DNA of 38,399 bases from IMG/VR virus record IMGVR_UViG_3300027412_000057, positions 1 through 38,399 of that record; one strand, written 5' to 3'. Positions 12,562 through 31,247 of this stretch are shown one piece after another. The position numbers and the translations under genes were made by a program. How positions within the stretch are numbered: position 1 is the first letter of the stretch; each line of letters opens with the position of its first letter. The stretch is from a virus (Duplodnaviria > Caudoviricetes). The notes below the pieces were generated by a model. It saw only the letters and a program-made list of their open reading frames with translations, was not told the origin of the DNA and searched no databases.

Positions 12562-12617
12562 CATTCAGTAACAGCAGCCTTGGCTGCGTCGTTGCGTGGG
12601 ACTGCCCTTGCGGCAGT
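12562..12617. repeat. 56-nt structured element, copy A
   Basis: CATTCAGTAACA-GCAGCCTTGGCTGC-GTCGTTGCGTGGG-ACTGCC-CTTGC-GGCAGT. Confidence 0.9.
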
Positions 12618-12631
12618 AGTTATAACGGGTT

Positions 12632-14053
12632 TTACAGATACAGATCGATGCGACCGGCAAACACATGCAGGCCATTGACCACATTGGTCGGGATCTTCGC
12701 ATCCAGACGGTTCGGGTCTTGCAGGTCACGTTCAACGATCAGCTGACCCTTCCACAGATCCACGTTCTGCACGATCTCCAGCTCCTCCAGCTTGTACAGC
12801 ACGTCCAGCAGCTCGGAACGCACCTTGTCGGGTGTACGCGCCGAGAGCTTTTCACGCGGGAAGCGCAGCGCGATACGCTCGCGGCAGGCTTTACGCACAT
12901 AGTCCAGGGTGCGGATGGTCGTCAGGTCCAGCATCGAGATGTCCGGCACACCCTGCGCATCAAGCATATAAGTGGTGATGGCGCGCACGATCTGCACCTT
13001 CTCGCCCGGGCCTACCTCAGATGGGGTAATGCCGTTGTACAGCGCGTTCTCCTGCTCGACACGCCCCAGACGGTTCGCCAGCGGGTTCGCCAAAATGCCG
13101 ATCAGCGGCAAGGTATTGAGCGGCCGCGCCGGATCCTCTTCACTGGCCACTACCGCACCATAAGCCGCCGCCACTTCAAAGCTAGCCTCAAAGCCGTTCG
13201 GTACCAACAAACCACTGATGCGTCCGCTGTTGATATTGGCAGCCAGCGTGGTGCTCGCGGCCAGCGTGCCGATATGCGCAAAGATACCCACCGCACCGCG
13301 CTGCTCTAGTGGACCGGAGACCGCATCCAGATGGGTACGCAAAGCAGTCAGACTGGTCTGATCGTTCCAGGCACTGATGATGATGTTGTGGCCTGCGGCG
13401 AACACCGTGGCCAGCACAGTAGCGATATCAGGATCTGTAGCACCGGCAGCCATCGCCACCACCACAACCGTCACACCCGCAGCCGCAGCGACGGCGCTAA
13501 CCTTAAGGCCATTGCCCAGCGTGCCCTTGTTCTTGGCGGTCAGCGTAATCACACCCGCTACAGCAACAGCGGTCACCGGCAGATCAGGCTGCTTGGCGAT
13601 CTGCGCTACCAGCGCGGCGGCGATGATGGTCGGCGTATCGGCTGCCGTGACGGCCACGACGATCGACTGATCGCCTACGTTTAGCGTAACTACGCCACCG
13701 GCAGAGGCATTGCCGCTTATTGTCACCGTACCCGTTGCGGCTACGGAGGCAGCAGCGTCATCCAGCGCGATCATGGTCAGTGCCAGATAGTTGTTGGCCT
13801 GCAACGCCGAACGCGCCATCAGGTGAGCTACTGAGCCACGCCCGAAGAACGTCGCGGCATCGGCATCTGAGAATACATCCACAGCAACATTGGCCAGCAC
13901 CGTACCCGCTGCCAGACGCTGACCGACGATCAGAGTCTTCTGCAGATTGCCTGGCAAGGTGCGCACGGCCAGCTTGGTGTTGAATTCAAAATACTTGCCC
14001 GGCTTGCGGATACTGGCCGGAATGTTGTCAAAAGCGATATTTGCGCTAGGCAT
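12632..14053 (-). CDS. Tail sheath protein (Mu L/gp39)
   Basis: FD.IP.SIRKPG.YFEFN, FG.GS.AH.M, EEDPARPLNTL, LDLTTIRTLDYVRK. Confidence 0.96.
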   Translation of the reverse strand: MPSANIAFDNIPASIRKPGKYFEFNTKLAVRTLPGNLQKTLIVGQRLAAGTVLANVAVDVFSDADAATFFGRGSVAHLMARSALQANNYLALTMIALDDAAASVAATGTVTISGNASAGGVVTLNVGDQSIVVAVTAADTPTIIAAALVAQIAKQPDLPVTAVAVAGVITLTAKNKGTLGNGLKVSAVAAAAGVTVVVVAMAAGATDPDIATVLATVFAAGHNIIISAWNDQTSLTALRTHLDAVSGPLEQRGAVGIFAHIGTLAASTTLAANINSGRISGLLVPNGFEASFEVAAAYGAVVASEEDPARPLNTLPLIGILANPLANRLGRVEQENALYNGITPSEVGPGEKVQIVRAITTYMLDAQGVPDISMLDLTTIRTLDYVRKACRERIALRFPREKLSARTPDKVRSELLDVLYKLEELEIVQNVDLWKGQLIVERDLQDPNRLDAKIPTNVVNGLHVFAGRIDLYL

Positions 14054-14232
14054 TATGCGGCTCCCTTGGTGGTAGTTTTAACGGTTGCTTTGACCTCGAT
14101 CAGATCGCCATCGGTGATGCGTCGCTGGTAATAAGCGCTATCAGGTACGACCACCGCCTTTGCATCGGTGATGTAATCGTGCGGCTTGCCTTCCATCGGC
14201 ACTTTTAATCCTATTGCGGCTATGAGGTTCAT
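14053..14232 (-). CDS. Mu gp38-like small protein (DUF2635), 59 aa, absent from ORF track
   Basis: MNLIAAIGLKVPMEGKPHDYITD....VPDSAYYQRRITDGDLIEV; stop overlaps sheath ATG. Confidence 0.85.
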   Translation of the reverse strand: MNLIAAIGLKVPMEGKPHDYITDAKAVVVPDSAYYQRRITDGDLIEVKATVKTTTKGAA

Positions 14233-14241
14233 GGCGGATCC

Positions 14242-14847
14242 TTATCGTAAAGTTGTCAAATCTGCAGCATCTGCGACATCGTCGCCCGGCTTCAGGTAGT
14301 AATTGATACCCAGCTTGAGCCACATCGGATCGGTCGGGTCGATCGGCACACGCGGTTCGGTCTCGACAAACTCGGTGTGCCACTCCCGGGCGAATACGGC
14401 TACCGCCTGATTGTTGAGTTTGGTGTTATATAAAGTACGTGTCGCTCCCGGCTTAAAGTGTCCTACGCCCGCCAACCCCAGATCGTTATTGATCAACAGC
14501 AGACCGATATCCTCCAGCATCTGATATGCGCCCACCTCTTTGACCACGCCGCCTACCGTCAGGCCATGCCGCGTCGAACGCTCGCCGCGCACATTACGCG
14601 CACCGACCATCACCACAAAAGTGGCAGGCGTCAGCCACTTGCTGCGCGATGTACCGACCGGCTTGGGCTTGCCCGTGCCGCCGAACGTCACCCAGACAGC
14701 GGGAAACTTGCGCACCACCTTGCCCAGCTCATCATCCAGCTCACCACCGTAACTGGCGACTTCTGCCAACCTGTAACCCAAGCCCGGTGTGGCGACGTTG
14801 GCGGCCTGAATACGGGCAATGATGGCGTCTTCGATAGTGGAAATCAT
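14242..14847 (-). CDS. Mu gp37-like tail completion protein (DUF1834)
   Basis: IEDAIIARI, V.SYGGELD, FPAVWVTF.G; synteny. Confidence 0.85.
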   Translation of the reverse strand: MISTIEDAIIARIQAANVATPGLGYRLAEVASYGGELDDELGKVVRKFPAVWVTFGGTGKPKPVGTSRSKWLTPATFVVMVGARNVRGERSTRHGLTVGGVVKEVGAYQMLEDIGLLLINNDLGLAGVGHFKPGATRTLYNTKLNNQAVAVFAREWHTEFVETEPRVPIDPTDPMWLKLGINYYLKPGDDVADAADLTTLR

Positions 14848-14848
14848 G

Positions 14849-15274
14849 TCAATATCCGCTCAGGCTATTCGCATCGAACACACGTGCATTGCTCGCTACC
14901 TGGATCGATGCGCTCTGTGGTGCGGCCTGTCCTGCCACTGACAGCCCAATATCCAGCTTGCCGTCGCGCACCTGCTCCAAGGTCCTGAGCGCATCCTTGT
15001 AACGATTACGGGCGGCATCAGTCTCAGTCGCATCTGCACCGAGCAGCTTGTAACGTGCGATGTCACAGCAAACATCTACCAGCATCTGCGGCACGATCGG
15101 CAGTGGCAGCGTATAACGTGCCGCCAGATAGCTATCAATCATGTCGCTGGCACGCTGTAACCCACCCTCAACCACGATCGTATCCGCCACGCCAGTAAGA
15201 TAGCGATCGGAAATGGCGACCACCTCGGCTTCGCCGAACTGGTTGATCAAATCGGATTGAGTGGCGTAGGACAT
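14849..15274 (-). CDS. Head-tail joining protein Mu gp36 (DUF1320)
   Basis: MSYAT..DL...FG..E, ID.YL..RY.LPL, CCDIARY.L, RY.DA...L. Confidence 0.92.
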   Translation of the reverse strand: MSYATQSDLINQFGEAEVVAISDRYLTGVADTIVVEGGLQRASDMIDSYLAARYTLPLPIVPQMLVDVCCDIARYKLLGADATETDAARNRYKDALRTLEQVRDGKLDIGLSVAGQAAPQSASIQVASNARVFDANSLSGY

Positions 15275-15603
15275 TATTTACCTTGCATCCAGACTGCATC
15301 ACGCTCGGCAGCCGAGACTTTCCAGCCAGTGATAGCCGCAATCGCTTCTGCCTTTGGTGCACCGCTAGCCAGCCACAATGTCGTATCGGCTTGATCCAGC
15401 GTACTGATCGCCTCAACGATAGCAGCCAGACGTTCTTCATCCGTCAGCGTCAGGGTTTTATGTGCGCCCTCAACTGGACCGCTCACCGCGCCGATCTCCA
15501 GCAAATCTTTCGCATCTTTTTCGTTCAGCTCGATTGTGTCGCCTTCTGCATATTCCTTGCCGTCATGCTTGATCGGGCTTTCGACTGTATAAGTATTCAT
15601 CAT
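15274..15603 (-). CDS. Small head-associated hypothetical protein (Mu gp35 position)
   Basis: Y.V..PI.HDG..Y..GD.IEL N-terminal motif; GAGGTG RBS. Confidence 0.7.
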   Translation of the reverse strand: MMNTYTVESPIKHDGKEYAEGDTIELNEKDAKDLLEIGAVSGPVEGAHKTLTLTDEERLAAIVEAISTLDQADTTLWLASGAPKAEAIAAITGWKVSAAERDAVWMQGK

Positions 15604-15621
15604 CACCTCATCTGTTGGTCA

Positions 15622-15645
15622 GATGCCCCGCCGCAGCGGGGCATC
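15622..15645. terminator. GC-rich hairpin after capsid gene (stabiliser or weak terminator)
   Basis: GATGCCCCGC-CGCA-GCGGGGCATC; no clear U-tract. Confidence 0.45.
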
Positions 15646-15658
15646 ATCAGGTTACGTT

Positions 15659-16726
15659 TTAGTTGACAGCGGTCTGGATCAGGTAACCGCCGGCGGCCGC
15701 CGAGATGATAGGCGCACGCTCATCTGTCACCGGATACATCCAGCTGTTCTTACCGCGATCCTGGAACGCCATCTCGACCATCGGATGACCGCGCAACTGA
15801 TAGGTATAGCCAAAGCTTGGTACACCACCGTCATCTGCTGTAGCGATCTCGGTGTAAGCCACAATCACGTCCTTGCCCCACACGTCAGTCATCGTGCCGG
15901 CTGCGTTGTATATCGCATCGCCACTGACCACGCGCTCGACATCGAACAGCTGAGCCAGCATCTCCAGCGTCACGCTGTCACGGCCGGTGTACTTGATGCG
16001 GTCGATGATCTTCGGATGGCGCTTCGCTGCCTTGAATGCCTTAGGAGACAACACAACGGTATTGGCGCGCACACCGATCTGCGCACGAATCGCTTCGATA
16101 CCTGCATCGATATCTGCGCTTGGGTCAGATATGCCAGATGCGTAATCGTCCCAGCGTGAAGTACCTGCCAGTGCGGTTTTATTGGCTGCGGCGTAGTTGG
16201 CGGCATTACGGGCGATACCCGCTGCCTCAAATTCTGCTGACAGCAAGATGATGTTCTGCGTCTTGCGCACAGCGTTGGTACCGAGATTGATGCCGGGCAC
16301 CTGGTTGGCTTCCTGCAGATGCTCGAACGGTACTTTGCCGATCAGGCGATTCTGTTTGAGCGCGAACGGTAGACCCAGATGGCCGAACTGCACTTCTTTG
16401 GTATCCGCACCTGGCGCACGTGCCGTGTTGTACAGCTCAAAATCTTCCTTGCCGAATTCCAGAATCTGACCGCCACGCTGATCGACTGGCACGAGAGGAA
16501 ACAGATAGTCTGCCACCATGCGGCCGTTCTTGTAGCCCTTAGCGACCGTAGTCAGGATAGGGTCGATGACACGCGCTTGCGCATTGGTCATGTTGCCGAT
16601 CACGCCGAAGGCAAGTGCCGCATTCGGGTCGATCCATGACGGGTCAACGATACCGGCATGCGCCAGTGCCGTATATGCCAGCACACCGGCCAGTACAGCA
16701 AAGAGTTTGAAGAGTTTGGTTTTCAT
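15659..16726 (-). CDS. Major capsid protein with 45-aa N-terminal extension
   Basis: AR.IDP.LT..A.GY.N, .FGKE.F....T.RAPGA, W.DY....SDP, HPKI..RIKYT, PS(F)GYTY; ACAGGAG RBS before ATG 16726. Confidence 0.9.
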   Translation of the reverse strand: MKTKLFKLFAVLAGVLAYTALAHAGIVDPSWIDPNAALAFGVIGNMTNAQARVIDPILTTVAKGYKNGRMVADYLFPLVPVDQRGGQILEFGKEDFELYNTARAPGADTKEVQFGHLGLPFALKQNRLIGKVPFEHLQEANQVPGINLGTNAVRKTQNIILLSAEFEAAGIARNAANYAAANKTALAGTSRWDDYASGISDPSADIDAGIEAIRAQIGVRANTVVLSPKAFKAAKRHPKIIDRIKYTGRDSVTLEMLAQLFDVERVVSGDAIYNAAGTMTDVWGKDVIVAYTEIATADDGGVPSFGYTYQLRGHPMVEMAFQDRGKNSWMYPVTDERAPIISAAAGGYLIQTAVN

Positions 16727-16807
16727 GTTGTAGCTCCTGTAAAGGTAAAGTTCCAAAGTAAATGGTGCGCTGCTAGTTAAGCAGCTAAATAATTTTGAGA
16801 GGCGCTG

Positions 16808-17149
16808 TTAGTTTGGCAGCAGGATGACTTCGACGAACTGCCCGGCAGCCGTCGCTACTTCGCCTGGGGCGAGGCGCGCAACGGAGACACCGGCAGCCTT
16901 GGTGATGGCGCGTCCGGTTGCATCCGTCTCGATCAGTGCACCGGCAGCGATGGCAGCGCCAGCCTCAACGATCTCGGTACCGAGCACCGTTGCTGTAAAA
17001 CGTGCACCGATGGCAGCTGCACTATCGGCAACGCCTTGCGCATTCACGCCAGCGCCAGCTACTGCACCGGCAGGTGTGACGAAACGATTGCTGACGATCA
17101 CGCCGCTGGCAACCATCGTCAGGGCGAGTAAAGGGGTAGATTGCTTCAT
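16808..17149 (-). CDS. Capsid decoration/cement protein (DUF2190-like)
   Basis: Ala/Gly-rich, VEAGAAIAAGA...DA.GRAI, A.AAGQ..EV; between protease and capsid. Confidence 0.85.
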   Translation of the reverse strand: MKQSTPLLALTMVASGVIVSNRFVTPAGAVAGAGVNAQGVADSAAAIGARFTATVLGTEIVEAGAAIAAGALIETDATGRAITKAAGVSVARLAPGEVATAAGQFVEVILLPN

Positions 17150-17177
17150 GGTTATATCTCCTGAGTTCAGTGGATGG

Positions 17178-17660
17178 TTAAACGCTTACTGCAGCCAGCG
17201 CGGCTTCGTAAGTAGTTTTGTTTGCAGATTGGTGAGCCAGTGCCTTTTGATGCAGTGCCAGACGGTCGGCATCTACGCTCATACCGTTCGGTGCGGCGAA
17301 GTTCACGACACCAGCGGCAGAAGCCTCAGCACCGGAAACCTCGGCAAATTCGACTTGTTTAGGCATCGCGGTGACGAACGCCTTAAACGCATCTACCAGC
17401 GATTGCTTGGCCTCGCCCTCACCAAACTCCACCACCTGAGCGGGGGACGCCATTTGATCCAGCGTAGCAACGACGAGCGCTTTCCCAGATGGCAGCAGCT
17501 TGCCTGCCTGTACCTGAACCTCGGCAAACGCGACATGCTCGGCATGGCGCGCAGCAGCAGCGCGGGTGGTTTCGGCTTCAGCAAATGCGACCTGCTCAGC
17601 CTTCAATCGGATGTTTTCAGCTTCCAGCTCGGCAAAGCGGGCTTTATCTTCAGCGGACAT
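17178..17660 (-). CDS. Nested in-frame scaffold protein (Z-like)
   Basis: Internal GAAGGAGACGAA-ATG at 17660 opening a coiled-coil region. Confidence 0.65.
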   Translation of the reverse strand: MSAEDKARFAELEAENIRLKAEQVAFAEAETTRAAAARHAEHVAFAEVQVQAGKLLPSGKALVVATLDQMASPAQVVEFGEGEAKQSLVDAFKAFVTAMPKQVEFAEVSGAEASAAGVVNFAAPNGMSVDADRLALHQKALAHQSANKTTYEAALAAVSV

Positions 17661-18311
17661 TTCGTCTCCTTCAGGTGGGGTTTTTGGATCGGCGAATGCC
17701 GGAGAAACTTGATTTTCACTACGAGACTCACGCAACTCATCCTGCGCGCCTAGTTCCAGGCTTTGCACGGTATAGCCGGGCAGTACTTTGTTGGCTTCAT
17801 CCTGGCCGAACTTGCCGATGATCCATTCGCGCAGATTGCGCCACAGACTGGCGTTATCTACATCGTCATAGTCAGCAAACTCGACGATGCCTTGTTCGGC
17901 ATCTCCGAACTCAGGATTACGCAAGCCTTTTACGGCAGGTGGCTGCGCACCCAGAAAACCCACATGACGCAGGTAATACACACCCGGCACAGGGTTGCTG
18001 GGGGAATCGGGAGAGTAGAACGAGGCGCTGATCTTCTTGAACGCGCCACCCGCTACCATCTCGGCAAAGGCGACATCGACCTGATTGGTATCAGCCTCCA
18101 GTGCGCCTTCAGCAAAACTCAGGCCGCCGACCCAGCCATAAGCAGGCGCATCGTGCCGAGGATGGCCGCAGACTAGCGGGGCCTCATGTTTGGCTGGATC
18201 ATAGGCTGCAGCGGTCGCAGCAAGATCGGTTTCAGAAAACGACAACGCATCGCCGCTCATTGCGACATGCTTGCCGGGCTTGAAAATCTGGATTGGTTTA
18301 GGCGTTTTCAT
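17178..18311 (-). CDS. Prohead protease/scaffold (Mu I/Z-like)
   Basis: IFKPG.H, HEAPLV.GHP, PAYGWV, KKISASFY.P..P.NP.PG.YYLRHVGFLGAQPPAVKGL; start moved to ATG 18311 from promoter geometry. Confidence 0.9.
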   Translation of the reverse strand: MKTPKPIQIFKPGKHVAMSGDALSFSETDLAATAAAYDPAKHEAPLVCGHPRHDAPAYGWVGGLSFAEGALEADTNQVDVAFAEMVAGGAFKKISASFYSPDSPSNPVPGVYYLRHVGFLGAQPPAVKGLRNPEFGDAEQGIVEFADYDDVDNASLWRNLREWIIGKFGQDEANKVLPGYTVQSLELGAQDELRESRSENQVSPAFADPKTPPEGDEMSAEDKARFAELEAENIRLKAEQVAFAEAETTRAAAARHAEHVAFAEVQVQAGKLLPSGKALVVATLDQMASPAQVVEFGEGEAKQSLVDAFKAFVTAMPKQVEFAEVSGAEASAAGVVNFAAPNGMSVDADRLALHQKALAHQSANKTTYEAALAAVSV

Positions 18312-18363
18312 GGTTGCCATTGTGGCAACCGGGGGAAGGGGCGTTAAGGCGGAACAGGTTCCG
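18312..18363 (-). promoter_or_regulatory. Putative Mor/C-activated late promoter upstream of protease (PI-like)
   Basis: CGGAACCTGTTCCG (18350-18363), 25 nt, -10 CACAAT (18319-18324), 7 nt, ATG. Confidence 0.8.
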
Positions 18364-18364
18364 T

Positions 18365-18420
18365 CACTCAGTAACAGGAACTTCAGTTCCGTTTTTGCGT
18401 GGGACTGCCCTTGCGGCAGG
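18365..18420. repeat. 56-nt structured element, copy B
   Basis: CACTCAGTAACA-GGAACTTCAGTTCC-GTTTTTGCGTGGG-ACTGCC-CTTGC-GGCAGG. Confidence 0.9.
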
Positions 18421-18485: not shown

Positions 18486-19187
18486 TTATGTAGTGGTTGG
18501 TTTTTTGGCCGCCTGTTTTTCAAGCCGCACCTTGAACTCATCATAACGATCAGCGAGGTCATAGATATATTCAATAATCGCATGTACAAATATCTGAAGA
18601 TCGCGAGCATCCTCGCGCGAGATACTGATGTCTTCAGGATGCGCTGCCAGATCTCGGAATGCTTTCAGCTGCTGACTCCAGTCGTAAAGTCGCTGATCGA
18701 TGACCTGCATGTCTTTCAGTTTTTTGATACCCGCCCCAAGCATGATCTTCTTGGGTGCTTTCATGAAATCTGGAGGCGTGGCGACATTAATCACATCCCG
18801 ACAAAGTGCTTCCAACGCTCGGCCTAGCATAACGCAAGCCGCAATATTTGCCCCTGCTTGTAATGATCGCTCGGCTTCGCTTAATGAGTCTCTAACGACC
18901 TTGGGTATTCTCGCGCTATAGAATGTTTTAGCTGGCAGGGGATAGACCCGTATAACATCGCCCCACTGATCTTCGTAAGCAGTTACTCCCTCGAAACCAA
19001 TCTGCTCAGTCGATCCGACAAGAATGGCTTTGCAGACTGGACAGTTTCCGACCAATACCCTAAGCACTTCAGGAAGCTCGCCGGCATCTTCATAGTCGGC
19101 TTGTTCTGCTCGCCCCGTTTCAGCTGCAGCCACTTTTACTTTGCAGTAAGGGCAATCGATAATGAATGAGGGCTGTGGATTAGTCAT
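18486..19187 (-). CDS. DUF4145/HEPN-like protein with N-terminal CxxC pairs (moron)
   Basis: CPYC/CPVC; EA..S...GA..AA.VM.GRALE.LC; RDLAAH (Rx4H); lower GC; inserted between G and I. Confidence 0.8.
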   Translation of the reverse strand: MTNPQPSFIIDCPYCKVKVAAAETGRAEQADYEDAGELPEVLRVLVGNCPVCKAILVGSTEQIGFEGVTAYEDQWGDVIRVYPLPAKTFYSARIPKVVRDSLSEAERSLQAGANIAACVMLGRALEALCRDVINVATPPDFMKAPKKIMLGAGIKKLKDMQVIDQRLYDWSQQLKAFRDLAAHPEDISISREDARDLQIFVHAIIEYIYDLADRYDEFKVRLEKQAAKKPTTT

Positions 19188-19433
19188 TTTTATTCCCTAT
19201 CGCCAGAAGTTCAGCAAGTTTTTAACTCAATGGTGAGATTGTACTCCGTGAATACATTAGAAACCGCCTAACAAGGCCGTTAACCCACCGTTAAAAATCA
19301 TCCGTGATTATTTTTCATACCATCGCCGCACTGGAATGCGCTAGGCCGCTTAAAACGGCTCTGAGCGGGTTTCGCTCAAAACAACGAGCGCGTAGCGCGA
19401 CTATGTTTTTAGGCTAAGACCCTTGCGATCTTG

Positions 19434-19926: not shown

Positions 19927-19932
19927 GCTTGC

Positions 19933-22823: not shown

Positions 22824-24416
22824 CTACATAAATCCGGCCATGCCGCCAGATGCGGCGACACGTCGGCCTACTGATTGGAATTCGATATCAACCACTTCAC
22901 GCTTCATTGCGTAATGGCCAAGGAACAGGCTGATCGCCGAGTCGCCGTGGCGTTGCAGCTTTTCACCTTCGCCGCTCTGTGTCTTTGATTTGCCCAGTTT
23001 CGGGATACCGTCGATGAGCTGCAACGCGCGCAGATCATCACGCACCTGGCTGTCTTTCGGGATGTCGTCCAGCGTGCCGTCTTGCAGCGCCGCCTTGAAG
23101 CGCGGCATGTTTTCAAGATAGAAAGAATTACTCAACATCACCTGCTCGATACGGGTCTGGCCATACTTCTGTGCGGCGCGCTCTGCCAGATACTGACCGT
23201 TGCCGCGCGCATCGAATGCTGCCGAGCGGAAGCGTGGCAAACGGTCCAGGATGTAGAACACGATCTGTTCCTGTTGGGTGAACGGGCAGTTGGACAGTTC
23301 GACCTGGCCACGCACGCGGGTGATCAGGTCGCGCCCCTCTTCCATGATATCCAGTACGGTCAAGTCGCCCAGGCGCGCGAAGTCTTCACCGAGGCCATGC
23401 GCCATATCTTTATTCAGGCCATCCAGTATCGGCTTCAGATGCTCTTCGCACCATTCGGCCACTTCTGCTTGACGCTCCCAGTCCGGCAGATAGGCAAACT
23501 CTGATTTCCATTTACCGCGCACCAGTGGCGTGTCCGGATTCATCCTCGCCTCGATCAGCCCCATCGTCAGATACGCGCCACCCGATTGCGATGGCACGAC
23601 ATCCAGCTCTTCGGCTGCATCATCACCATAGAAGGCATAGGCATCAGCTACCCATGCAGCCTCACCATCAGCAGTCCATGCAATGCCACGGCGCAGACAA
23701 ACCCTCAGATATAGCCCTTGCTCGACGGCCTTGCGGAAGGTAATGCGATGTACCACCCCTTTACGCTTGCCAGCGCGCACCTCCTGGATAAGCTCATTGA
23801 AGGCGTTGTCTTGACCGTCGTGCGTAGAGATGATGCGTACCTTGTCACCCCATAGCAGCATCGCCATCGCGGCCTTGAGTAGCGCATCCAGATCATTGTG
23901 GAAGGCCGCCTCATCGATGACGATGACACCCTGCTTGCCGCGCAGATTGGTCGGGCGCGAGCTGAGCGCGACGATGCGCCGGCCAGTAGCGGGGAAGTCG
24001 ATTTTGTAAGTCTTGATCTCCTTATCGCCATCGACAAAGATACCCTCTTCGATTTCAGAGGCAGCATAGTCATAGGCACGCGCCCACATCGCACATGCCT
24101 CAATGAACTCCAGCGCCATGTCCTGCGTAGGGCCGATGTAAAACACGTTCGAGTTGTATTCCTCGCGCGCTGCAATCAGTACATCATCAGCAGCCTCACC
24201 CCATGTCCAACCGACACGCCGTGATTTTTCCGCAATTTTTAAAGGGCTGTCATCCTCGATCCAGCGGATCTGATAGGGCAATAACACAGCCGGTGGCGCA
24301 TCTTTGCGCGCGGCATCGCCCGGTAGACTGACCGGAATGGATTTCACCCGCAAGGGGTAGGCCGGTGGGTTCCCGGCGGCTACGCCGCCACCCTTACGCT
24401 CAGTTTTGGATGCCAA
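22824..24416 (-). CDS. Terminase large subunit (Mu gp28-like)
   Basis: LLPYQ..W, EKSRRVG.TW, LRG.QG...IDEAAFH, GEDFAR.GDL, RHGDSA; TTG start at 24416 after AGGAG (start uncertain). Confidence 0.93.
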   Translation of the reverse strand: MASKTERKGGGVAAGNPPAYPLRVKSIPVSLPGDAARKDAPPAVLLPYQIRWIEDDSPLKIAEKSRRVGWTWGEAADDVLIAAREEYNSNVFYIGPTQDMALEFIEACAMWARAYDYAASEIEEGIFVDGDKEIKTYKIDFPATGRRIVALSSRPTNLRGKQGVIVIDEAAFHNDLDALLKAAMAMLLWGDKVRIISTHDGQDNAFNELIQEVRAGKRKGVVHRITFRKAVEQGLYLRVCLRRGIAWTADGEAAWVADAYAFYGDDAAEELDVVPSQSGGAYLTMGLIEARMNPDTPLVRGKWKSEFAYLPDWERQAEVAEWCEEHLKPILDGLNKDMAHGLGEDFARLGDLTVLDIMEEGRDLITRVRGQVELSNCPFTQQEQIVFYILDRLPRFRSAAFDARGNGQYLAERAAQKYGQTRIEQVMLSNSFYLENMPRFKAALQDGTLDDIPKDSQVRDDLRALQLIDGIPKLGKSKTQSGEGEKLQRHGDSAISLFLGHYAMKREVVDIEFQSVGRRVAASGGMAGFM

Positions 24417-24912: not shown

Positions 24913-24913
24913 C

Positions 24914-25225: not shown

Positions 25226-25574
25226 GTTTTGCCCCCTGTATTTGCACCAGCTCCAACTTGCTATAGACCGCATCCAGCTTGGATTCGATCACCGTCTGAC
25301 CGCGTATGTAATCTTCGCGCCGTACGTACTGGATCGGCATGTCGCGTTGAAATATCAAAAACTCCTTTTCAAATTCACGCAGTTGTTCTGCCATCTTCGC
25401 TTCATCTCTGGCACGCGCAGTATTGTCACTTTGTATAGCTTCAAAACGTTGATCCAGTTGCGTTTTGAATTGCTTAACCAAAATCGTCCCGAATGCCCAT
25501 ACAACTAGTGCATAAGCCGCCACCACCGATATCAATCCGGTAATTAGCTGCCACATTTCTATCTGGAGCTGCAT
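25218..25574 (-). CDS. Membrane-anchored coiled-coil protein (Mu gp25 position)
   Basis: N-terminal TM; P..YVRREDYIR.Q..IE.KLD. Confidence 0.75.
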   Translation of the reverse strand: MQLQIEMWQLITGLISVVAAYALVVWAFGTILVKQFKTQLDQRFEAIQSDNTARARDEAKMAEQLREFEKEFLIFQRDMPIQYVRREDYIRGQTVIESKLDAVYSKLELVQIQGAKRD

Positions 25575-25762
25575 AATTGCCTTTCGCGTTTTTCGTAATC
25601 ATCCCGGCAATCGGTATCGCAAAAGCACCCCTCGAACACCACCTCGTCGCAGTTGTAGCAAAAGCCCAGCGCAGGCATGGCAGGTTTGAGCGCCTGATCG
25701 CGCAGCGCATCGGCACGGCGGAGTTCTTCAAAGGCTTGCGCCTGGTCAAGTTGATCGGTCAT
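25559..25762 (-). CDS. TraR/DksA-like C4 zinc-finger protein
   Basis: D..D.AQ..EE..R..AL; CYNC...FCD..C. Confidence 0.7.
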   Translation of the reverse strand: MTDQLDQAQAFEELRRADALRDQALKPAMPALGFCYNCDEVVFEGCFCDTDCRDDYEKRERQLCSSR

Positions 25763-26010
25763 TTATTTACGCACCCCGCCAACTTGGCCTGCTTGTCCCG
25801 GCACTGGCTGTACCATTCCATCGCCTCGATGTGGTTCTGCAACAAGTCTGTCAGCTTCCCCGACTTGGCCGGTGGCGGTGTGATACAGGGTGAACTCAGG
25901 CTCGCCGGGCACGGGCGCGGCGCTACCGCTATTGGCGGCGTTCCAGAGGCGCAACCCGTCAGCATCAAGGCCGCAATACTTAAACTCAGGATTGTTTTTA
26001 ACGATTTCAT
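25759..26010 (-). CDS. Rz1-like outer-membrane lipoprotein spanin, embedded in Rz
   Basis: MKSLKTILSLSIAALMLTGC lipobox; Pro-rich; alternate frame within Rz-like gene. Confidence 0.8.
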   Translation of the reverse strand: MKSLKTILSLSIAALMLTGCASGTPPIAVAPRPCPASLSSPCITPPPAKSGKLTDLLQNHIEAMEWYSQCRDKQAKLAGCVNK

Positions 26011-26260
26011 CAGCCTGCTCCTTGATGTTTTTGTAAACGATGCGGATACGCTCGCCGCTGGTTTCGCGCTGCGTGCCGATGGTTTCACGGCGCGTATCTT
26101 CCTTTGCCGTTGCAATAATTGCTGCGCCTTGCGCCGCCACCTGTCCCGCCACACATTTCGCTTTTGCATAATCGTTCCCCAACCACAACCCAGTCGAAAA
26201 TACGGACAGTAGCAACACCAGTCCGCCCAATAAACGCCACGGCAAGGGGATTAAACCCAT
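25763..26260 (-). CDS. Rz-like inner-membrane spanin
   Basis: N-terminal TM, helical region, C.LDADGLRLWNAAN; in lysis cassette. Confidence 0.75.
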   Translation of the reverse strand: MGLIPLPWRLLGGLVLLLSVFSTGLWLGNDYAKAKCVAGQVAAQGAAIIATAKEDTRRETIGTQRETSGERIRIVYKNIKEQADEIVKNNPEFKYCGLDADGLRLWNAANSGSAAPVPGEPEFTLYHTATGQVGEADRLVAEPHRGDGMVQPVPGQAGQVGGVRK

Positions 26261-26337
26261 TTCATCACCCCGGACGTCCAGCATATCAAGCCCGCACCAG
26301 CAGACACGCGGCCAGATAGAGCAGCGCGGCGCGCAGA

Positions 26338-26562
26338 TTACGGTTCATTTTTAACTCCATATTTGAGTGACAGTAGCTTTGAAAGGGTGGCCGACGCGCC
26401 GATGCTGGCCAGATAGATCAGCCAGATTTCGGCGCTGGCCGTGCCTGCGTAGGCCATGTAACAAAAAGCCACGGTGGCGGCGGCATAGGCGATGTTTGCC
26501 CACAGCTTGGTGTGCGACACCATGCCGGTGCCGGCATCGGTAATCAGATCGGATAGCTTCAT
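26338..26562 (-). CDS. Putative holin (DUF2644-like)
   Basis: DLIT...TG..SHTKLWANIA; two TM segments; follows endolysin. Confidence 0.75.
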   Translation of the reverse strand: MKLSDLITDAGTGMVSHTKLWANIAYAAATVAFCYMAYAGTASAEIWLIYLASIGASATLSKLLSLKYGVKNEP

Positions 26563-26948
26563 GACTTTCTCCAGTTTGCATTTTGGAAGTGCGCCGTCTC
26601 TTTAAAGTTTTTCCACCGTCCTGCCCACACTAGCCCCAACTTTTCGCCAATCGCTCCGGCGCGCAGGTAATCAGGGTCGTTGCCTTTGCCGACATACTTG
26701 CCATTGCGGATAACACCGACATCAAATGCCTCGGCAGCTGGCCTGCCATTAGCGTCATGACAGTTATGTGCGCTCTCTCCCGGCCTGCATTTGGAAGCGC
26801 CGCTATCAAAGGCTTTTTGTTGCTCTGCATCCGGTCGGTGAGTACAGATAATCACCACATCCAATTTTTGAGCGAGACATTCCGCCATGAATTGCTGCGC
26901 GATAACCTGCATCACAGTGGATAGATCACTTATCTTTCGACTCACCAT
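26559..26948 (-). CDS. Endolysin, M15 family peptidase
   Basis: T.R...EQ, S.HN, AFD, G..LGL.W.GRW..F.E..HFQ; start MVSRK at 26948. Confidence 0.88.
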   Translation of the reverse strand: MVSRKISDLSTVMQVIAQQFMAECLAQKLDVVIICTHRPDAEQQKAFDSGASKCRPGESAHNCHDANGRPAAEAFDVGVIRNGKYVGKGNDPDYLRAGAIGEKLGLVWAGRWKNFKETAHFQNANWRKS

Positions 26949-26949
26949 T

Positions 26950-27135
26950 TCAGCCCGCCTTTCGTGGTTTTGATTGAAAACGCACCGGACTGGTGATGCA
27001 TACCTGTAGTCCGTGCGTGTAATGCCCAGCGGGGCGATGCGCGCAGCCGCCATGATCGGGCAGGCGCGCGTCATCGAGCCGCGCCCAGTGGGCGCAGCGA
27101 CCGCAGATGTTTTTGAGTTGTGTTGGGGAAGTCAT
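26950..27135 (-). CDS. Small Cys/His-rich hypothetical protein, first gene of lysis operon
   Basis: C..C.HW...GGC...C; ATG 6 nt after late-promoter -10; stop abuts endolysin start. Confidence 0.65.
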   Translation of the reverse strand: MTSPTQLKNICGRCAHWARLDDARLPDHGGCAHRPAGHYTHGLQVCITSPVRFQSKPRKAG

Positions 27136-27186
27136 GCGCACAGGTTACGCGCGCGCGCGAAGGCGGTTAAGGCGGAACGGGTTCCG
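27136..27186 (-). promoter_or_regulatory. Putative Mor/C-activated late promoter (Plys-like)
   Basis: CGGAACCCGTTCCG (27173-27186), 25 nt, -10 TAACCT (27142-27147), 6 nt, ATG. Confidence 0.82.
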
Positions 27187-27187
27187 T

Positions 27188-27243
27188 CACTCAGCAACAG
27201 CAGGTTTACCTGCGTCGTTGCGTGGGACTGCCCTTGCGGCAGT
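27188..27243. repeat. 56-nt structured element, copy C
   Basis: CACTCAGCAACA-GCAGGTTTACCTGC-GTCGTTGCGTGGG-ACTGCC-CTTGC-GGCAGT. Confidence 0.9.
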
Positions 27244-27247
27244 AGTG

Positions 27248-27309
27248 GTAGGGTGGGCATTTGCCCACGCGGAAGAATCAGGTGGGCAAATGAAACCTGC
27301 CCACCCTAC
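27248..27309. repeat. GTAG-type REP doublet (REPIN-like)
   Basis: GTAGGGTGGGCA-TT-TGCCCAC ... GTGGGCA-N9-TGCCCACCCTAC, two inverted REP-like units. Confidence 0.75.
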
Positions 27310-27344
27310 GCGATTACGCGATGCGCGCTAGGCGTGCATCACCG

Positions 27345-27845
27345 TTAATTAAGGCTCTTGTCTCCGCGCACAAATGACCCGGAATAGGGAGTTCTTGCTA
27401 TTTTTACAAATAACCTTCCATCTGAGCGGATTGCTCCTGACAATGCAGTACCTTTGACACGGATACCGTAGAACCTATCTCCGCTATCTGAATATTTGTC
27501 CGTAAATACTTCGTAATGCTGTATTTCCTTTGCTCCCCATTGGTTATCACGGGGCGAAGCTGTCTGTTCAATCAGTACGCCATCAGGCTTAATTTCCCAG
27601 CGCATCCACTCCAATAGGCTATCGTCAGTAATTGGCTGTGAATATACCCAAGTCCCCACGATAAACCGCTGGGCATCAGCAATATTTTTAATATCCTTGG
27701 CTTTAATTACTTCTTCAGGTGTGACTAGCTGATTTTCTTGAGATTTACTATCAAATCCACCGCTTGCCATAAACCAAACAAACAAAGCCATTCCAGCCAA
27801 TGAAAAGAAAACCTCTTTACCGCTCAGTATCCGCTTCATGCTCAT
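27345..27845 (-). CDS. Hypothetical membrane-anchored protein (low-GC moron)
   Basis: N-terminal TM then soluble beta-rich domain; AT-rich; GGGAG RBS. Confidence 0.75.
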   Translation of the reverse strand: MSMKRILSGKEVFFSLAGMALFVWFMASGGFDSKSQENQLVTPEEVIKAKDIKNIADAQRFIVGTWVYSQPITDDSLLEWMRWEIKPDGVLIEQTASPRDNQWGAKEIQHYEVFTDKYSDSGDRFYGIRVKGTALSGAIRSDGRLFVKIARTPYSGSFVRGDKSLN

Positions 27846-27875
27846 GATCTTCTCCCTTTGTTAAAATTCTGCACC

Positions 27876-28253
27876 TTAAAACAATCCCACCTGCCTGTCA
27901 TCCACCTCCGCGCCCAATACCTTACGCACCGTCCTGTCGGTGGTGCGCAGTTCGCGGGCGATCTGTTTCTGGCTCAAACCTTGCGCGGCCAGTTCGCGGA
28001 TCCGCGCGCGACGCTGGGCGGCGTGAGTGGCGTGGTCACCTGTGGTATTCAGCGCGATACTGATCACTTCACCCGGATAAGCCTGCGCCAGCTTGCGTGC
28101 GGCTTCAACACCGATCAGTGTGGCAAGCGGGTGTTGTTCGGTCATCTTTGCCGGGACATACAGCGGCGTGCCACCGTGCTCTTCAACCAGCAGCAGAGTG
28201 GCTTTCAATCCGATGATCTCGGTCAGGCCGTAGAGAAAGGGCGATAGGTTCAT
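27876..28253 (-). CDS. Mor/C family late transcription activator
   Basis: L.EIIG..A.L.LV...GGT.LYVP, HPLA.LIG.EAA..L, C-terminal HTH; upstream of lysis genes. Confidence 0.85.
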   Translation of the reverse strand: MNLSPFLYGLTEIIGLKATLLLVEEHGGTPLYVPAKMTEQHPLATLIGVEAARKLAQAYPGEVISIALNTTGDHATHAAQRRARIRELAAQGLSQKQIARELRTTDRTVRKVLGAEVDDRQVGLF

Positions 28254-28705
28254 GGTTTGTTCTCCATTACGGAGCGTTGCTGCTGATAGGACAGCGCGGC
28301 GATGATCTTGCCGAGCTGCTGCGGGGTGCACCACTCGAAACGATCTACCTTGAACATGTGGCGGCTCATGCCGTCGGCATAGGCATCCGGCTTGTTGTCC
28401 AGGGCGATCAGTAGTGCGCGTATCTTGGCCACCAGAGCGGCCTTATCGGCGGCGGGGCGGGGGCGGGCGCTCGTGCCGGCACGCTTGGCCACTACCTTGA
28501 AGCCGCTGGCCTTCATGTGGTCGAGCACATTCTTACGCCCGGCAAAATCCAGCTCAGTCGAACTCTTCACCCGCGCCACCGCCCACAGCATGGCGCGATA
28601 AGTGTCGTCATCCATGCCGAGCTTCTGCCTGGCGACATGGATCAGTGTGATCTCACGCCGCACGATGTCGGCTTGCTTGAATTTGGCTGGGTATTGGTTG
28701 CTCAT
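28250..28705 (-). CDS. gemA: GemA/gp16 family protein (DUF1018)
   Basis: IHVA...LGMDDDTYR..L, V.SS..L, KIRAL. Confidence 0.88.
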   Translation of the reverse strand: MSNQYPAKFKQADIVRREITLIHVARQKLGMDDDTYRAMLWAVARVKSSTELDFAGRKNVLDHMKASGFKVVAKRAGTSARPRPAADKAALVAKIRALLIALDNKPDAYADGMSRHMFKVDRFEWCTPQQLGKIIAALSYQQQRSVMENKP

Positions 28706-29109
28706 GACTTTTCAATCAACTCAACTGATTCACATACCCGGCACAGGTGATTGATGGCGGCTTTTCCGCTTGCCCAGTCAGGCATGTAACAGGTATAGAT
28801 TTTGCTGTAATACGGATCGGCAGCAAAACGACGCTTGCCCATGATCTTTTCAATCTTTTTCTTCTGGATGGGGGAGCAAACAGGTTTATTCACTTTGCGC
28901 AGGAATTTTGATTCGGGAGATTGGCTATCAACCATGCACCACACCCCCTTGAATACCCCATCGACATAAGTCATGACGCGGTAAGCCATTGCACTGGTGC
29001 GTTCTACAGCCAATGTGATGCGCGAACCATCGCACATCAGTTCTACTAACCCATAGGGATTCGATATCTTTTGAATCGCCAGCTCTTTTTGCTCTTTGCT
29101 CAATTTCAT
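28702..29109 (-). CDS. Hypothetical phage protein
   Basis: GGAG RBS; stop overlaps gemA start. Confidence 0.7.
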   Translation of the reverse strand: MKLSKEQKELAIQKISNPYGLVELMCDGSRITLAVERTSAMAYRVMTYVDGVFKGVWCMVDSQSPESKFLRKVNKPVCSPIQKKKIEKIMGKRRFAADPYYSKIYTCYMPDWASGKAAINHLCRVCESVELIEKS

Positions 29110-29149
29110 GATCATCTCCAACGTTCATTCAGCGTTAAACTATCTCTCG

Positions 29150-29173
29150 CAGCCCGCTATTTTTAACGGGCTG
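29150..29173. terminator. Hairpin after HU gene
   Basis: CAGCCCG...CGGGCTG inverted repeat. Confidence 0.35.
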
Positions 29174-29184
29174 GAAGCGAATGT

Positions 29185-29472
29185 TTAGTTGCTGTTCGCC
29201 GCATCCTTCAGCGCTTTGGCTGCACCGAAATGTGGTTTGTTTTTGGCTGGGATTTGCATCTCCACACCCGTTGCCGGATTGCGGCCAATGCGTGCCGGAC
29301 TCTGCTTGACGCTCAGCTTGCCGATGCCGGGCAGTATGACTTCACCGCCTTGCTGCATTTCTGCCTGTGCAATATCACCTACAGCCTCCAGCACGAATTT
29401 GATGGCCGTTTTGGAAACGCCCGTATTCGCGTGATGTGCTGCGATTGCGTCGATCAGTTCTTTTTGGTTCAT
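29185..29472 (-). CDS. HU-family DNA-binding protein
   Basis: MNQKELIDAIA, V.LPG.GK, AR.GRNPATG....IPAK..P.F...KALKDA. Confidence 0.93.
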   Translation of the reverse strand: MNQKELIDAIAAHHANTGVSKTAIKFVLEAVGDIAQAEMQQGGEVILPGIGKLSVKQSPARIGRNPATGVEMQIPAKNKPHFGAAKALKDAANSN

Positions 29473-29514
29473 GTTGTTTCTCCTATGGTTTTGCCCAGTT
29501 GGGCGGTTAAAAAA

Positions 29515-29769
29515 TTACGACATCTGTACCTGATCAAGGCCTACCCAGCCGGGACCTGCGTTATCAGCCACCTGCACCTCCTCAATCGAGATATTCAAGA
29601 AAAATCCATTCTCCAAGTTCAGGCGAACCGGGGATTGAAGTGAAGTAAACCCTATTTTTCTCATGGCAATCTCCAATATGTGATCAATATCAGATACAAA
29701 TAAATCACCATTAAATTGATCATCGTGCAGCACTGAATACCTGAGCTCTTCCAAAGTGACGTCAATCAT
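29515..29769 (-). CDS. Hypothetical acidic protein, low GC
   Basis: ATG overlaps gam stop; fills intergenic space. Confidence 0.55.
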   Translation of the reverse strand: MIDVTLEELRYSVLHDDQFNGDLFVSDIDHILEIAMRKIGFTSLQSPVRLNLENGFFLNISIEEVQVADNAGPGWVGLDQVQMS

Positions 29770-30293
29770 TACGCGGCCTCCTGCTCGAACGGGGTAATCA
29801 CAAAGTCTTCCACACCGGTGACAACACTGATTCCCGCCACGCCTTTGACGGCATCAGGTTCATTGAGGATGGCGTCTTTGTTGACTTCTTCCTTGGTGCG
29901 CACGAAGCGATCCAGGCCAAAGCCCTTCAATGCCTCGATCACGCTGTCTGCCCCTCTCACCGACACGCTGGGCGGACGCTGACGCCACTGCACTTCGCCG
30001 GTGACCAGATTGGCGGTCTTGACGCGACCGTTGTTGGTCAAATCAGCGCGGTTGGCTTCGCACCAGGCTTGCAGCCCTTCCTGACGCGTGCCTATGTCGC
30101 CCTTGAGCAGTTCCAGACGCGGCTGGTAGGTCTCGGTGAGGTGGGCGATGGCATCGTTCATCTCGGCCTGTTCACGCAGCATCTTGCGTTGCAGGTCGCC
30201 GATCTGACGGATGTACTGCGCAGCTTCGTCTCTGGATTGCGGCACGTCCAGTTGCGCTTTGGCTTTGATGCGGTTTTTTATTGCAGCCATCAT
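29769..30293 (-). CDS. gam: Host-nuclease inhibitor Gam (Mu gam family)
   Basis: WCEANR..LT..G.VKTANL.TGEV.WR.RPPSV, F.RTKEEVNK.AIL, EDFVI.PFE. Confidence 0.95.
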   Translation of the reverse strand: MMAAIKNRIKAKAQLDVPQSRDEAAQYIRQIGDLQRKMLREQAEMNDAIAHLTETYQPRLELLKGDIGTRQEGLQAWCEANRADLTNNGRVKTANLVTGEVQWRQRPPSVSVRGADSVIEALKGFGLDRFVRTKEEVNKDAILNEPDAVKGVAGISVVTGVEDFVITPFEQEAA

Positions 30294-30313
30294 GTTTCCT
30301 TTCGGGTGTAGCG

Positions 30314-30637
30314 TTAGGTTGGTAGATGTAGCTGCCCGATCAGATCGGCCAGCGGGATACGTTTCAGCTTGGCTTCCAGCGTCAGGCTATGCATCGCCCG
30401 GTTGTGCAGGAAGTCGCAGGTGGTTTGCAGCTCATCCGCCGTGGCGGCGATGTAATAGCCGTCTCTGGGCGTGCCACAGATGGCGTGGCCGTCTTCGCGC
30501 AGATCGCTGATATACGTGCGGATGATGCGCGGGAATAGGTCGAGCTGACGGGCAAGCTCTTTCATGCCGATCCCATTGCCACAACCGACATGGCGGGACA
30601 GAACGGTGAGCACCAGAGCACAGCTTTTATTCGACAT
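30314..30637 (-). CDS. Winged-helix DNA-binding protein
   Basis: H.G..NGI....LA, R.IR..I..LR..G..IC..P..GYYIA....EL. Confidence 0.8.
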   Translation of the reverse strand: MSNKSCALVLTVLSRHVGCGNGIGMKELARQLDLFPRIIRTYISDLREDGHAICGTPRDGYYIAATADELQTTCDFLHNRAMHSLTLEAKLKRIPLADLIGQLHLPT

Positions 30638-30639
30638 GA

Positions 30640-31191
30640 CTAACCCCCCCTCGTTGATTTAAGTATTTCCTTGACCGATTGAGGCATCACCGAACGAGGC
30701 TGGCTCACCTCGATCAGGACTGGTTTTACGTCGGGCGATGGCGTGTGATGCGACACGCCGCCCACCGGTGTGCGGCCTGCCAGCTTGTCTTCGTGCTGCT
30801 GCTCGCGGCGCTGGTCAGCCTTGAGGCCGTAGCCTTCGATGATGGTTAGCAGATAGCCGTGGCTTTTCAGCGGCAGGGTGAGTGTGTCGCGCTTAGCCAG
30901 CATGTCGTCCATCGCCATACGCCAGTAATCCTGCGGTGCAGAACAGGTACGGCCATTGCGCTCAATCCTGGCTGATGTAATCATCGGCAACAGTTCGTTG
31001 ATCAGGTTGGCCACACGATCCAGCGACAGTTGCCGCTGTGCCGGACGGAACAGCGCGATGTAGCGGATCATGTGCCAGCCCAGCGGGGCAGGTAGCTGCA
31101 TCGCCGCCATTACCGCTTCGCGCGCACCTTCATTGCCGAGCAGCGCATCGAGGCTGAACAACGCACCACATGCTGGGCAGGCGAGTTTCAT
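30640..31191 (-). CDS. Conserved Mu-like hypothetical protein
   Basis: CPACGA..SLD.L, Y..LFRP....L...R, L.LPLK.HGYL. Confidence 0.8.
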   Translation of the reverse strand: MKLACPACGALFSLDALLGNEGAREAVMAAMQLPAPLGWHMIRYIALFRPAQRQLSLDRVANLINELLPMITSARIERNGRTCSAPQDYWRMAMDDMLAKRDTLTLPLKSHGYLLTIIEGYGLKADQRREQQHEDKLAGRTPVGGVSHHTPSPDVKPVLIEVSQPRSVMPQSVKEILKSTRGG

Positions 31192-31247
31192 TCAGCAATC
31201 GGAGCATTAGCTCCGCCCCTGCGTGGGAAGACCCTTGCGGTTTTCAT
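31188..31247 (-). CDS. Possible 19-aa coupling peptide MKTARVFPRRGGANAPIAE
   Basis: ATGA overlaps at both ends; encoded by element copy D. Confidence 0.4.
   Translation of the reverse strand: MKTARVFPRRGGANAPIAE
31189..31244. repeat. 56-nt structured element, copy D (divergent)
   Basis: CATTCAGCAATC-GGAGCATTAGCTCC-GCCCCTGCGTGGG-AAGACC-CTTGC-GGTTTT. Confidence 0.85.

Follow-up and report, generated by a model that had tools for sequence, protein, structure and literature searches.

Two-hairpin repeats in a Mu-like phage as likely mobile passengers from Gallionella chromosomes

A repeat family common to phage and host

Four copies of a 56-nucleotide (nt) two-hairpin repeat lie within the 38,399-nt viral sequence analysed here (IMG/VR record IMGVR_UViG_3300027412_000057, Caudoviricetes; hereafter the window, meaning the whole stretch). 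We consider it likely that these repeats are mobile passengers of host origin, belonging to a multicopy two-hairpin DNA element that would move as a single-stranded dumbbell by means of an enzyme acting in trans. We favour mobile host passengers because the element is multicopy in Gallionella chromosomes and because its positions differ between near-identical phages.

The phage in the window is transposable and Mu-like, and its tail is contractile; its minus strand carries nearly all genes (56 open reading frames, ORFs, scanned), and its late activator gene lies at 27876-28334. The phage host is likely Gallionella, iron-oxidising bacteria, because a prophage approximately 95% identical to the window over most genes sits in a Gallionella sp. 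genome (G001:C6). The window is itself likely an integrated prophage, since a 69-kb metagenome contig matches it at 100% over three 2.4-kb loci (L369, L371 and L374). Throughout, element anatomy is read on the S strand, which is the minus strand of the window; L and G numbers denote loci and genomes, and F1, F2, F3, F5, F7, F8 and F9 are subfamilies. Copies A, B and C in the window belong to C-start, a variant of F1.

A strict pattern matched 121 loci in GTDB genomes (approximately 150 estimated), two of which (L195 and L214) were then dropped as chance matches with hairpin 2 missing. The carriers were labelled Gallionella, Gallionellales, Gallionellaceae, Sideroxydans, Nitrosomonadales or proteobacteria, and five genomes held 2-13 strict copies each, on both strands. 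The family pattern was found in 45 of the 121 genus genomes, with at least four matches in 23 and a maximum of 44; a reversed-pattern control gave 3 matches over all 121, and some single family-pattern matches are chance. A model search under strict filters gave matches in 15 of 151 family genomes. There was no sign of a multicopy state in 400 other genomes of the class, and a loose pattern applied class-wide matched in 79 of 401 genomes (a tally that takes in one match in G193), with more than four matches only in the centre genome and the rest chance-like by eye. Among 148 ORFs flanking 80 loci, 110 had a Pfam family, mostly with ordinary chromosomal functions, and both orientations occurred.

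Many host-chromosome copies in both orientations, named by an earlier, sequence-only reading of the window as evidence that would count against its own proposal, were therefore what the Gallionella genomes contained. That reading had also offered a small host-derived mobile palindrome, and this option is supported by the multicopy state on both host strands and by the site polymorphism described below; a host-derived mobile element is, in our view, very probable. When copy A was compared with 50,697 phage records by BLAST, none of the 18 matches reached 80% coverage, and two further sequence searches yielded 4 true loci among 25 in one and none in the other. Rfam gave no match at gathering score in the window, and none on the element at relaxed E-values.

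Copies and sites in the window

The family members and associated sites, in window coordinates, are as follows.

12561-12616, minus strand: copy A (F1, C-start), in the tail sheath/tail tube spacer, ending just before the tube ribosome-binding site.
18364-18419, minus strand: copy B, also F1 and C-start, placed upstream of the dyad preceding the head protease gene.
27187-27242, minus strand: copy C (F1, C-start), between a dimer of GTAG-type repetitive extragenic palindromes (REPs) and the dyad preceding the lysis genes.
31188-31243, minus strand: copy D (F1), where stop and start codons overlap in ATGA.
19372-19431, minus strand: fifth member, 60 nt, of sister subfamily F5, just past a Mu gpG-like gene.
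24345-24401, plus strand: sixth member, 57 nt, of sister subfamily F9, reversed, at the terS/terL junction.
25758-25767, minus strand: empty site at the ATGA start of a DksA-like gene, where G001:C6 has an exact 56-nt F1 insertion.
14060-14075, minus strand: site ahead of the sheath gene that lacks the element here but has a 57-nt F1 copy in G001:C6 and L028.
18350-18363: dyad CGGAA-N4-TTCCG before the protease gene, outside the element.
27173-27186: the same dyad, CGGAA-N4-TTCCG, before the lysis genes, outside the element.
27248-27309: inverted GTAG-type REP pair, a further repeat of host type that neighbours copy C in its spacer.

The fixed blocks and hairpin stem variants quoted for the four F1 copies in the sequence-only reading were all present in the window sequence. 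A 17-base fixed pattern had four occurrences in the window and none in 200 dinucleotide shuffles, and model R1, built from the family with the window copies included, scored the four copies at 68-82 bits and the next match at 15 bits. The copies first reported are thus real, but their ends were not placed correctly: the true unit lies one base lower, as placed by the exact 56-nt indel and by two covarying pairs (bases 1 and 15; base 16 and the last base), described below. The four are intergenic, co-oriented and equal in length, as claimed, except that the terminal bases of copy D hold the ATG of ORF 30640-31191, its own terminal ATGA being the source of the start codon. At site D in L030, L032, L234 and G001:C6, ATGA runs straight into the gene. 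The end of the F9 copy likely supplies a GTG start for terL.

The F5 and F9 copies had gone unnoticed in the sequence-only reading. The F5 copy is common to the window, L028 and G001:C6 and is multicopy in groundwater contigs. Host copies of F9 were found at L141, L176, L364 and L366; at the F9 site of the phage, one RNA-library contig is 57 nt shorter, but it is diverged there. The two dyads, which we take to be likely late-activator sites of the Mu C/Mor type, are retained in element-free relatives. Moron-like genes lie upstream of B (18486-19187, DUF4145/HEPN-like) and of C (27345-27845, orphan), and relatives carry replacements; uncharacterised ORFs adjoining copies C and D had no Pfam or PHROG family match. 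A single GTAG-type REP also occurs at 31460-31482, within a 271-amino-acid orphan ORF (31244-32059). The GTAG-type label follows the descriptions in Di Nocera 2013 and Quentin 2018.

Polymorphic sites and target choice

The window holds four F1 copies and the prophage of G001:C6 two, and none of these six sites is common to both, the F5 and F9 copies being shared. At the start of the DksA-like gene, the two sequences differ by an exact 56-nt indel with no target duplication, and the filled form was also seen in contigs of runs X1, X2 and X14. A 1-nt duplication would be indistinguishable at this clean indel, but it fails at G|A and C|A sites; moreover, rejoined REP and own-loop targets read intact. 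The same comparison at the pre-sheath site is not clean (net 54 nt, with three bases differing). Site A is empty in L032 (89% sheath identity), and the corresponding spacer in L028, L029, L033, L036 and L038 contains five different palindromic repeats; the element itself occupied the sheath-tube spacer in one distinct contig pair among 80 sheath loci (L035, identical to the window). Site B is empty in G001:C6 and L028, the L030 spacer holding a different F1 copy, and site C is empty in G001:C6 and other aligned relatives.

Target choice was assessed over unique sites, which gave the consensus YV|AR: A at +1 in 113 of 124, Y at -2 in 109 of 124 and R at +2 in 113 of 124. A stem of at least 4 bp surrounded the rejoined junction at 45 of 123 sites, versus 17 ± 3 and 18 ± 4 in two controls. 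Assigned by rough patterns (n = 123), the targets comprised own-family loops (48), GTAG-REPs (14), heptamer-like sequences (24) and others (37), the four phage sites themselves lying mostly outside strong hairpins. Insertion into the element's own loop leads to nested stacks. Terminal palindromes of IS605 elements also hold the element without duplication (L275 at both ends, L109 and L140); L275 (G124:C23:152759-156121) is an IS605 element with TnpA and a TnpB-like frame and a family copy in each terminal hairpin loop.

Several further observations concern repeat arrangement. The sheath-tube spacer of related Mu-like phages is a landing site for host repeats. At L255 (G145:C3:112500-113600), C-start copies repeat head to tail every 55 nt ahead of a terminator, the first copy being 5'-truncated. 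Stacks of 8-nt left halves exceed right halves at L381, L382 and L209, as if slippage or deletion had come after nesting. Another structured element, longer and existing in two versions (approximately 50-60 nt), inserts into the family in either orientation with precise ends of its own (L147, L153, L189, L198, L200, L217, L259 and L317).

Structure and covariation

The four window copies are exactly 56 nt, as first described, but this length does not hold for the family, which spans 54-60 nt and has 56 nt in 59 of 106 unique copies. In these 59, hairpin 1 pairs positions 1-5 with 11-15 around a 5-nt GCARG loop (form NNN-CC/GCARG/GG-NNN), and hairpin 2 pairs 22-26 with 45-49 and, past a 3x1 loop, 30-34 with 39-43. 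The base of this long imperfect hairpin (16 with the last base, 17 with the last but one) closes on the final two bases of the element. RNAalifold applied to the mixed-length alignment gave hairpin 1 only, and the 56-nt class was then realigned: 93% of cells were paired, two-sided changes occurred in 8 of 18 pairs, and the covariation score was 0.26 versus 0.076 for shuffled and at most 0.055 for slid alignments (the copies are related, hence this is not a p-value). The compensatory stem changes reported from the window alone are thereby borne out. The GNRA-loop, boxB-like hairpin proposed with them is not, as the outer pairs (1-15, 2-14 and 3-13) covary around a loop of 5 nt, and 22 of 105 rows (by eye) have G at position 9.

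When the end is joined to the start, the computed fold is a single unbranched rod with the junction within a 7-bp helix. Circular folds of F1, F2, F3, F5, F7 and F8 all take the form of this two-hairpin rod, and the bulge pattern is nearly identical among F2, F3, F7 and F8. Sister subfamilies have hairpin 1 in common and differ in sequence elsewhere (in F7 the strands of hairpin 2 are largely exchanged), such that at least six subfamilies retain one dumbbell geometry with swapped sequence. The pair formed by position 16 and the last base is T-A in all 144 units of F1, F2, F5 and F7 but G-C in all four of F9, and that of position 17 with the last base but one is C-G in F1, F2 and most F5 and G-C in 3 of 3 F7; search patterns fix some of these letters, and it is the contrast between subfamilies that constitutes the evidence. 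Since the terminal pairs covary, the last base is part of the element, and its ends meet inside one 7-bp helix. The element ends in NNN-CC and RTGA and has no terminal inverted repeats. Both copy D and the DksA-site copy of G001:C6 have a weakened lower stem.

Behaviour in phages

All 16 viral loci look Mu-like, 11 by protein matches and five (one site) by the late-promoter motif alone. Twelve of the 16 distinct phage sites are in sense orientation and four are antisense (L033, L231, L234 and window 24345). The C-start subfamily is enriched in phages (7/12 phage sites versus 5/112 host sites, p=7e-6; the sites are not independent), and a metagenome search for it returned 6 true loci among 14, all Mu-like, three of them the window's own sequence. 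The phage lineage seems to propagate its own element variant.

The placement of copies bears on whether they act in the phage. The adjacency of B and C to late-promoter dyads, described earlier, stands without the 1-nt gap then reported: both abut the dyads directly, from upstream, and would thus lie outside the transcripts of those promoters, with promoter position judged from the dyad. Copy D and the DksA-site copy sit at ATGA junctions, where the element ending restores the start. We are fairly confident that the element is a passenger in this phage. In so compact a genome, only spacers, moron sites and ATGA overlaps may tolerate it, and the sense orientation could be tolerated in that S has no U-tail and the RTGA ending can restore a start codon. 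A terminator scan flagged the plus strand of B and D and gave no flag on S at the four copies, a result that would fit a tolerance filter for sense copies.

The sequence-only reading had preferred a cis-acting phage RNA, namely an antiterminator of the put or nut type, a processing signal or an insulator. The sense orientation of all four F1 copies and of most phage sites, the strong covariation, and a density of six members per 38 kb that greatly exceeds the highest one in hosts (44 matches in 3.5 Mb) speak for such a signal. However, no F1 site is shared with the nearly identical prophage, the sheath-tube copy is confined to a single contig pair, B and C stand upstream of the dyads, and a quarter of phage sites (4/16) are antisense. 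The element is also abundant in host chromosomes, it has no Rfam match, and no antiterminator was found among the 56 ORFs scanned. This explanation is largely refuted, and we regard it as very improbable.

Mobile origin followed by co-option at some phage sites is compatible with host passengers: D would donate a start, A would form an mRNA-stabilising or processing hairpin, and B and C would act as insulators upstream of late promoters. The recurrence of weakened lower stems in both copies at ATGA gene starts and the phage enrichment of C-start point in this direction. Gene order, however, is unchanged in element-free relatives, and at site A relatives have various unrelated palindromes or no palindrome at all, as would be expected if the site is simply tolerant. 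We consider co-option unlikely overall.

The C-start hairpin CUGCC/GGCAG might also mimic the repeat of a type I-F CRISPR system, acting as an RNA anti-CRISPR. Its stem is like that of the Cas6f substrate, and the variant is phage-enriched. Against this, Cas6f (PF09618) was present in none of the 121 genus genomes searched, the stem is not followed by a handle like that of the repeat, and copy D is without the stem. We reject this idea unless the true host carries type I-F.

How the element may move

Under mobility as a host passenger, the element would be excised or copied as a closed single strand, recognised by shape and not by sequence, and transferred in one step into a single-stranded or hairpin target by a trans-acting enzyme. 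Provided that it is mobile, a single-stranded DNA route has a good chance of being correct. By analogy with palindrome-associated transposable elements (PATEs) and REPINs, a HUH (Y1-type) nuclease or another host single-stranded DNA strand-transferase would be the likeliest enzyme; to a HUH nuclease specifically we give, again assuming mobility, somewhat under an even chance. HUH enzymes carry out strand-transfer chemistry on hairpin-bearing single-stranded DNA circles and TnpA recognises hairpins (PMC6006769), and REP-associated tyrosine transposases (RAYTs) cleave at CT or CA (PMC8266576). On the strand opposite S, most targets read CT| or TT|; this agrees with such cutting but is not diagnostic of it. 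C-A at 21/53 or 19/53 and the pyrimidine mismatches suit that strand better, whereas S is indicated by the purine loops and the sense bias.

Co-occurrence with candidate mobilisers was counted by eye in 23 element-rich genomes (at least four pattern matches) and the 98 other genus genomes, which are incomplete assemblies and uncorrected for kinship. IntI (10/23 versus 54/98), IS110 (13/23 versus 53/98) and the GxxExY nuclease (8/23 versus 25/98) showed no significant association, nor did reverse transcriptase (RT; 14/23 versus 40/98, p=0.10); the richest genomes had no IntI or RT match (the two richest, for RT). A four-helix-bundle gene co-occurred weakly (20/23 versus 55/98, p=0.008, uncorrected for six tests and kinship). 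Copies were also seen in heptamer arrays directly beside four-helix-bundle genes (23S rRNA IVP, PF05635) at L164, L166, L262, L266 and L388; heptamers beside the IVS gene are described in PMC4990558. No autonomous copy with a gene in its loop was found among 175 right halves.

A number of results weigh against the proposed route. Y1 genes were not associated with element richness (19/23 versus 76/98, p=0.78), and one genome with 38 element matches (G004) had no Y1 match. No mobiliser emerged among the families tested (Y1, IntI, IS110, RT and GxxExY), although a near-universal host enzyme would likewise give no association. At 28 Y1 loci in 10 genomes, the F1 profile found the element only at the IS605 element of L275 and the fragment L292, both being insertions into IS-end hairpins. 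Unlike IS608 or REPs, the element has neither a set target tetranucleotide nor a guide, and no clear replication-strand bias, such as the lagging-strand-template bias of PATEs, emerged (31/69 by GC skew; 14/20 by replichore, p=0.12). Clean empty/filled pairs number only one, the tandem period at L255 is 55 nt and not 56 nt, and contigs of six runs (two from RNA libraries) contained filled sites with no circle, excised form or precise skip, this survey covering contigs, which lose rare forms. Wobble pairs leave the strand undecided, as the sequence-only reading had said: G-U and A-C mismatches are balanced, and the strand favoured by folding energies varies with folding parameters. Lastly, the sense bias (gene 5' of S co-oriented in 37/52, p=0.003, sites not independent; 12/16 phage sites) fits an RNA-level step too; the gene 3' of S is co-oriented in 22/48.

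Mobility could accordingly be RNA-mediated, with a sense RNA rod entering transcript loops or being reverse-transcribed at a nicked target, possibly through its own catalysis or with help from an Avd-like four-helix bundle. The sense bias, the purine-rich loops of the S strand, the 5'-truncated head-to-tail array at L255 and the weak co-occurrence of four-helix-bundle genes, which are often neighbours, would all suit it. Yet RT does not co-occur with the element and the two richest genomes are without an RT match, no Rfam ribozyme family matches, contigs from RNA libraries retain the element (these may be DNA), and the four-helix-bundle link may merely reflect flanking heptamer repeats serving as targets. 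We think an RNA route distinctly unlikely. Core motifs of hammerhead, twister, twister-sister and hatchet ribozymes, group II D5/D6, and Helitron and IS91 ends were absent.

Less probable still is an integron-like or IS110-like route, in which a tyrosine or DEDD recombinase would move a cassette that lacks a gene and has its junction in a short helix, like a folded attC. The junction does lie inside a 7-bp helix with bulged bases beyond, and at all three sites with C at +1 the inserted element has G at 15. However, nine other G15 elements precede A, the core is GA|A and not the G|TT of attC, neither IntI nor IS110 is significantly associated with element-rich genomes, and no loop among 175 right halves carries a gene.

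A bolder extension of the host-passenger reading is that the family is mobile DNA defined by its shape. It would be a closed dumbbell of 56 nt, one of the smallest elements to target themselves, and its enzyme would belong to none of the known classes Y1, IntI, IS110 and RT. That enzyme might be linked to the four-helix-bundle/heptamer-repeat system, or the nucleic acid might itself contribute to catalysis, and Mu-like phages would serve as nursery and vehicle for their own subfamily. We consider this unlikely, about as much so as co-option.

Implications

This family offers a defined substrate for the question of how very small, transposase-free and duplication-free repeats (SDR, SMR and REPIN-like) move. 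Its exact ends are set by the indel and by covariation of the terminal pairs, its targets have a consensus, and its subfamilies, six or more, are natural compensatory mutants of a single rod. Strong covariation in repeated, co-oriented phage hairpins can reflect selection for mobility and not regulation by RNA, and screens for structured RNA may be misled by it. Were the enzyme found, a 56-nt insert that seeks loops and leaves no scar would make a useful tool.

Comparison with known systems

Phage antitermination signals offer a first comparison, as HK022 put and lambda nut/boxB have, like the element, two adjacent hairpins and a purine-rich 5-nt loop. Unlike put and nut, the element is not placed downstream of a promoter, has no fixed position, occurs in both orientations and is also found in host chromosomes. 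The integron attC core is RYYYAAC...G|TTRRRY, whereas the element has its junction at GA|A and lacks an IntI association. Among cellular repeats, the SDRs of Elhai 2008 are reportedly 21-28 nt long, with their mechanism of movement left unexplained. Going by their description, SDRs resemble the element in being mobile, very small and precisely inserted into other repeats, and differ from it in that the element is larger, forms a two-hairpin rod and occurs in Gallionella and its Mu-like phages. SDR5 of Nostocaceae inserts precisely into HIP1, and SDRs are reported only in Nostocaceae (PMC4390886, PMC5861425 and PMC3116915).

An ordinary REP or MITE (miniature inverted-repeat transposable element), the class named by the sequence-only reading for scattered host copies, is right as to a mobile host repeat but not as to its class, since the element has no GTAG foot and, in contrast to MITEs, neither terminal inverted repeats nor target duplication. 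REP/REPIN-RAYT systems resemble the element in being intergenic, multicopy, hairpin-forming, of similar size and probably processed as single-stranded DNA (PMC6006769, PMC8266576 and PMC3116915). REPs are defined by a GT(A/G)G tetranucleotide at the hairpin foot (PMC6006769), whereas alignments of the element show no such foot, and it lacks inverted dimers and flanking RAYTs; GTAG-REPs are instead among its targets.

Closer in several respects are the PATEs of IS200/IS605, including 52-bp terminal-only forms, which are likewise without terminal inverted repeats or target duplication, have two palindromes near their ends, measure about 50-60 nt and are polymorphic between close relatives, as described in PMC3119063. 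The ends of the element, however, are unlike those of resident IS200/IS605 elements (L245, L275 and L280 have different hairpins), it has no fixed 4-6-nt target, its hairpins begin at the very ends, and it does not co-occur with Y1 genes. SMR-A of Haloquadratum walsbyi, described in the same paper (Dyall-Smith 2011), where its mobilisation is called enigmatic, is also transposase-free, generates no target duplication and inserts into near-terminal palindromes of IS605. It differs in being archaeal, about 110 bp long and bounded by terminal inverted repeats, whereas the element is 54-60 nt, has none and, beyond SMR-A-like insertion at IS605 ends, targets itself, REPs and heptamer repeats.

No prior description of the family was found in the open full-text literature, subscription journals being outside that scope; PMC3733652 does not mention Gallionella or Sideroxydans, and term searches of PMC2884548, PMC3184786 and PMC10969869 gave nothing relevant to the element. 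Precedents for such small transposase-free mobile repeats exist, but the element fails a defining test for MITE, REP/REPIN, PATE, SMR-A, attC and put/nut alike. What takes it beyond an ordinary repeat is its exact boundary, the sequence-swapped subfamilies built on one rod, the six members in a 38-kb phage and the phage-enriched variant.

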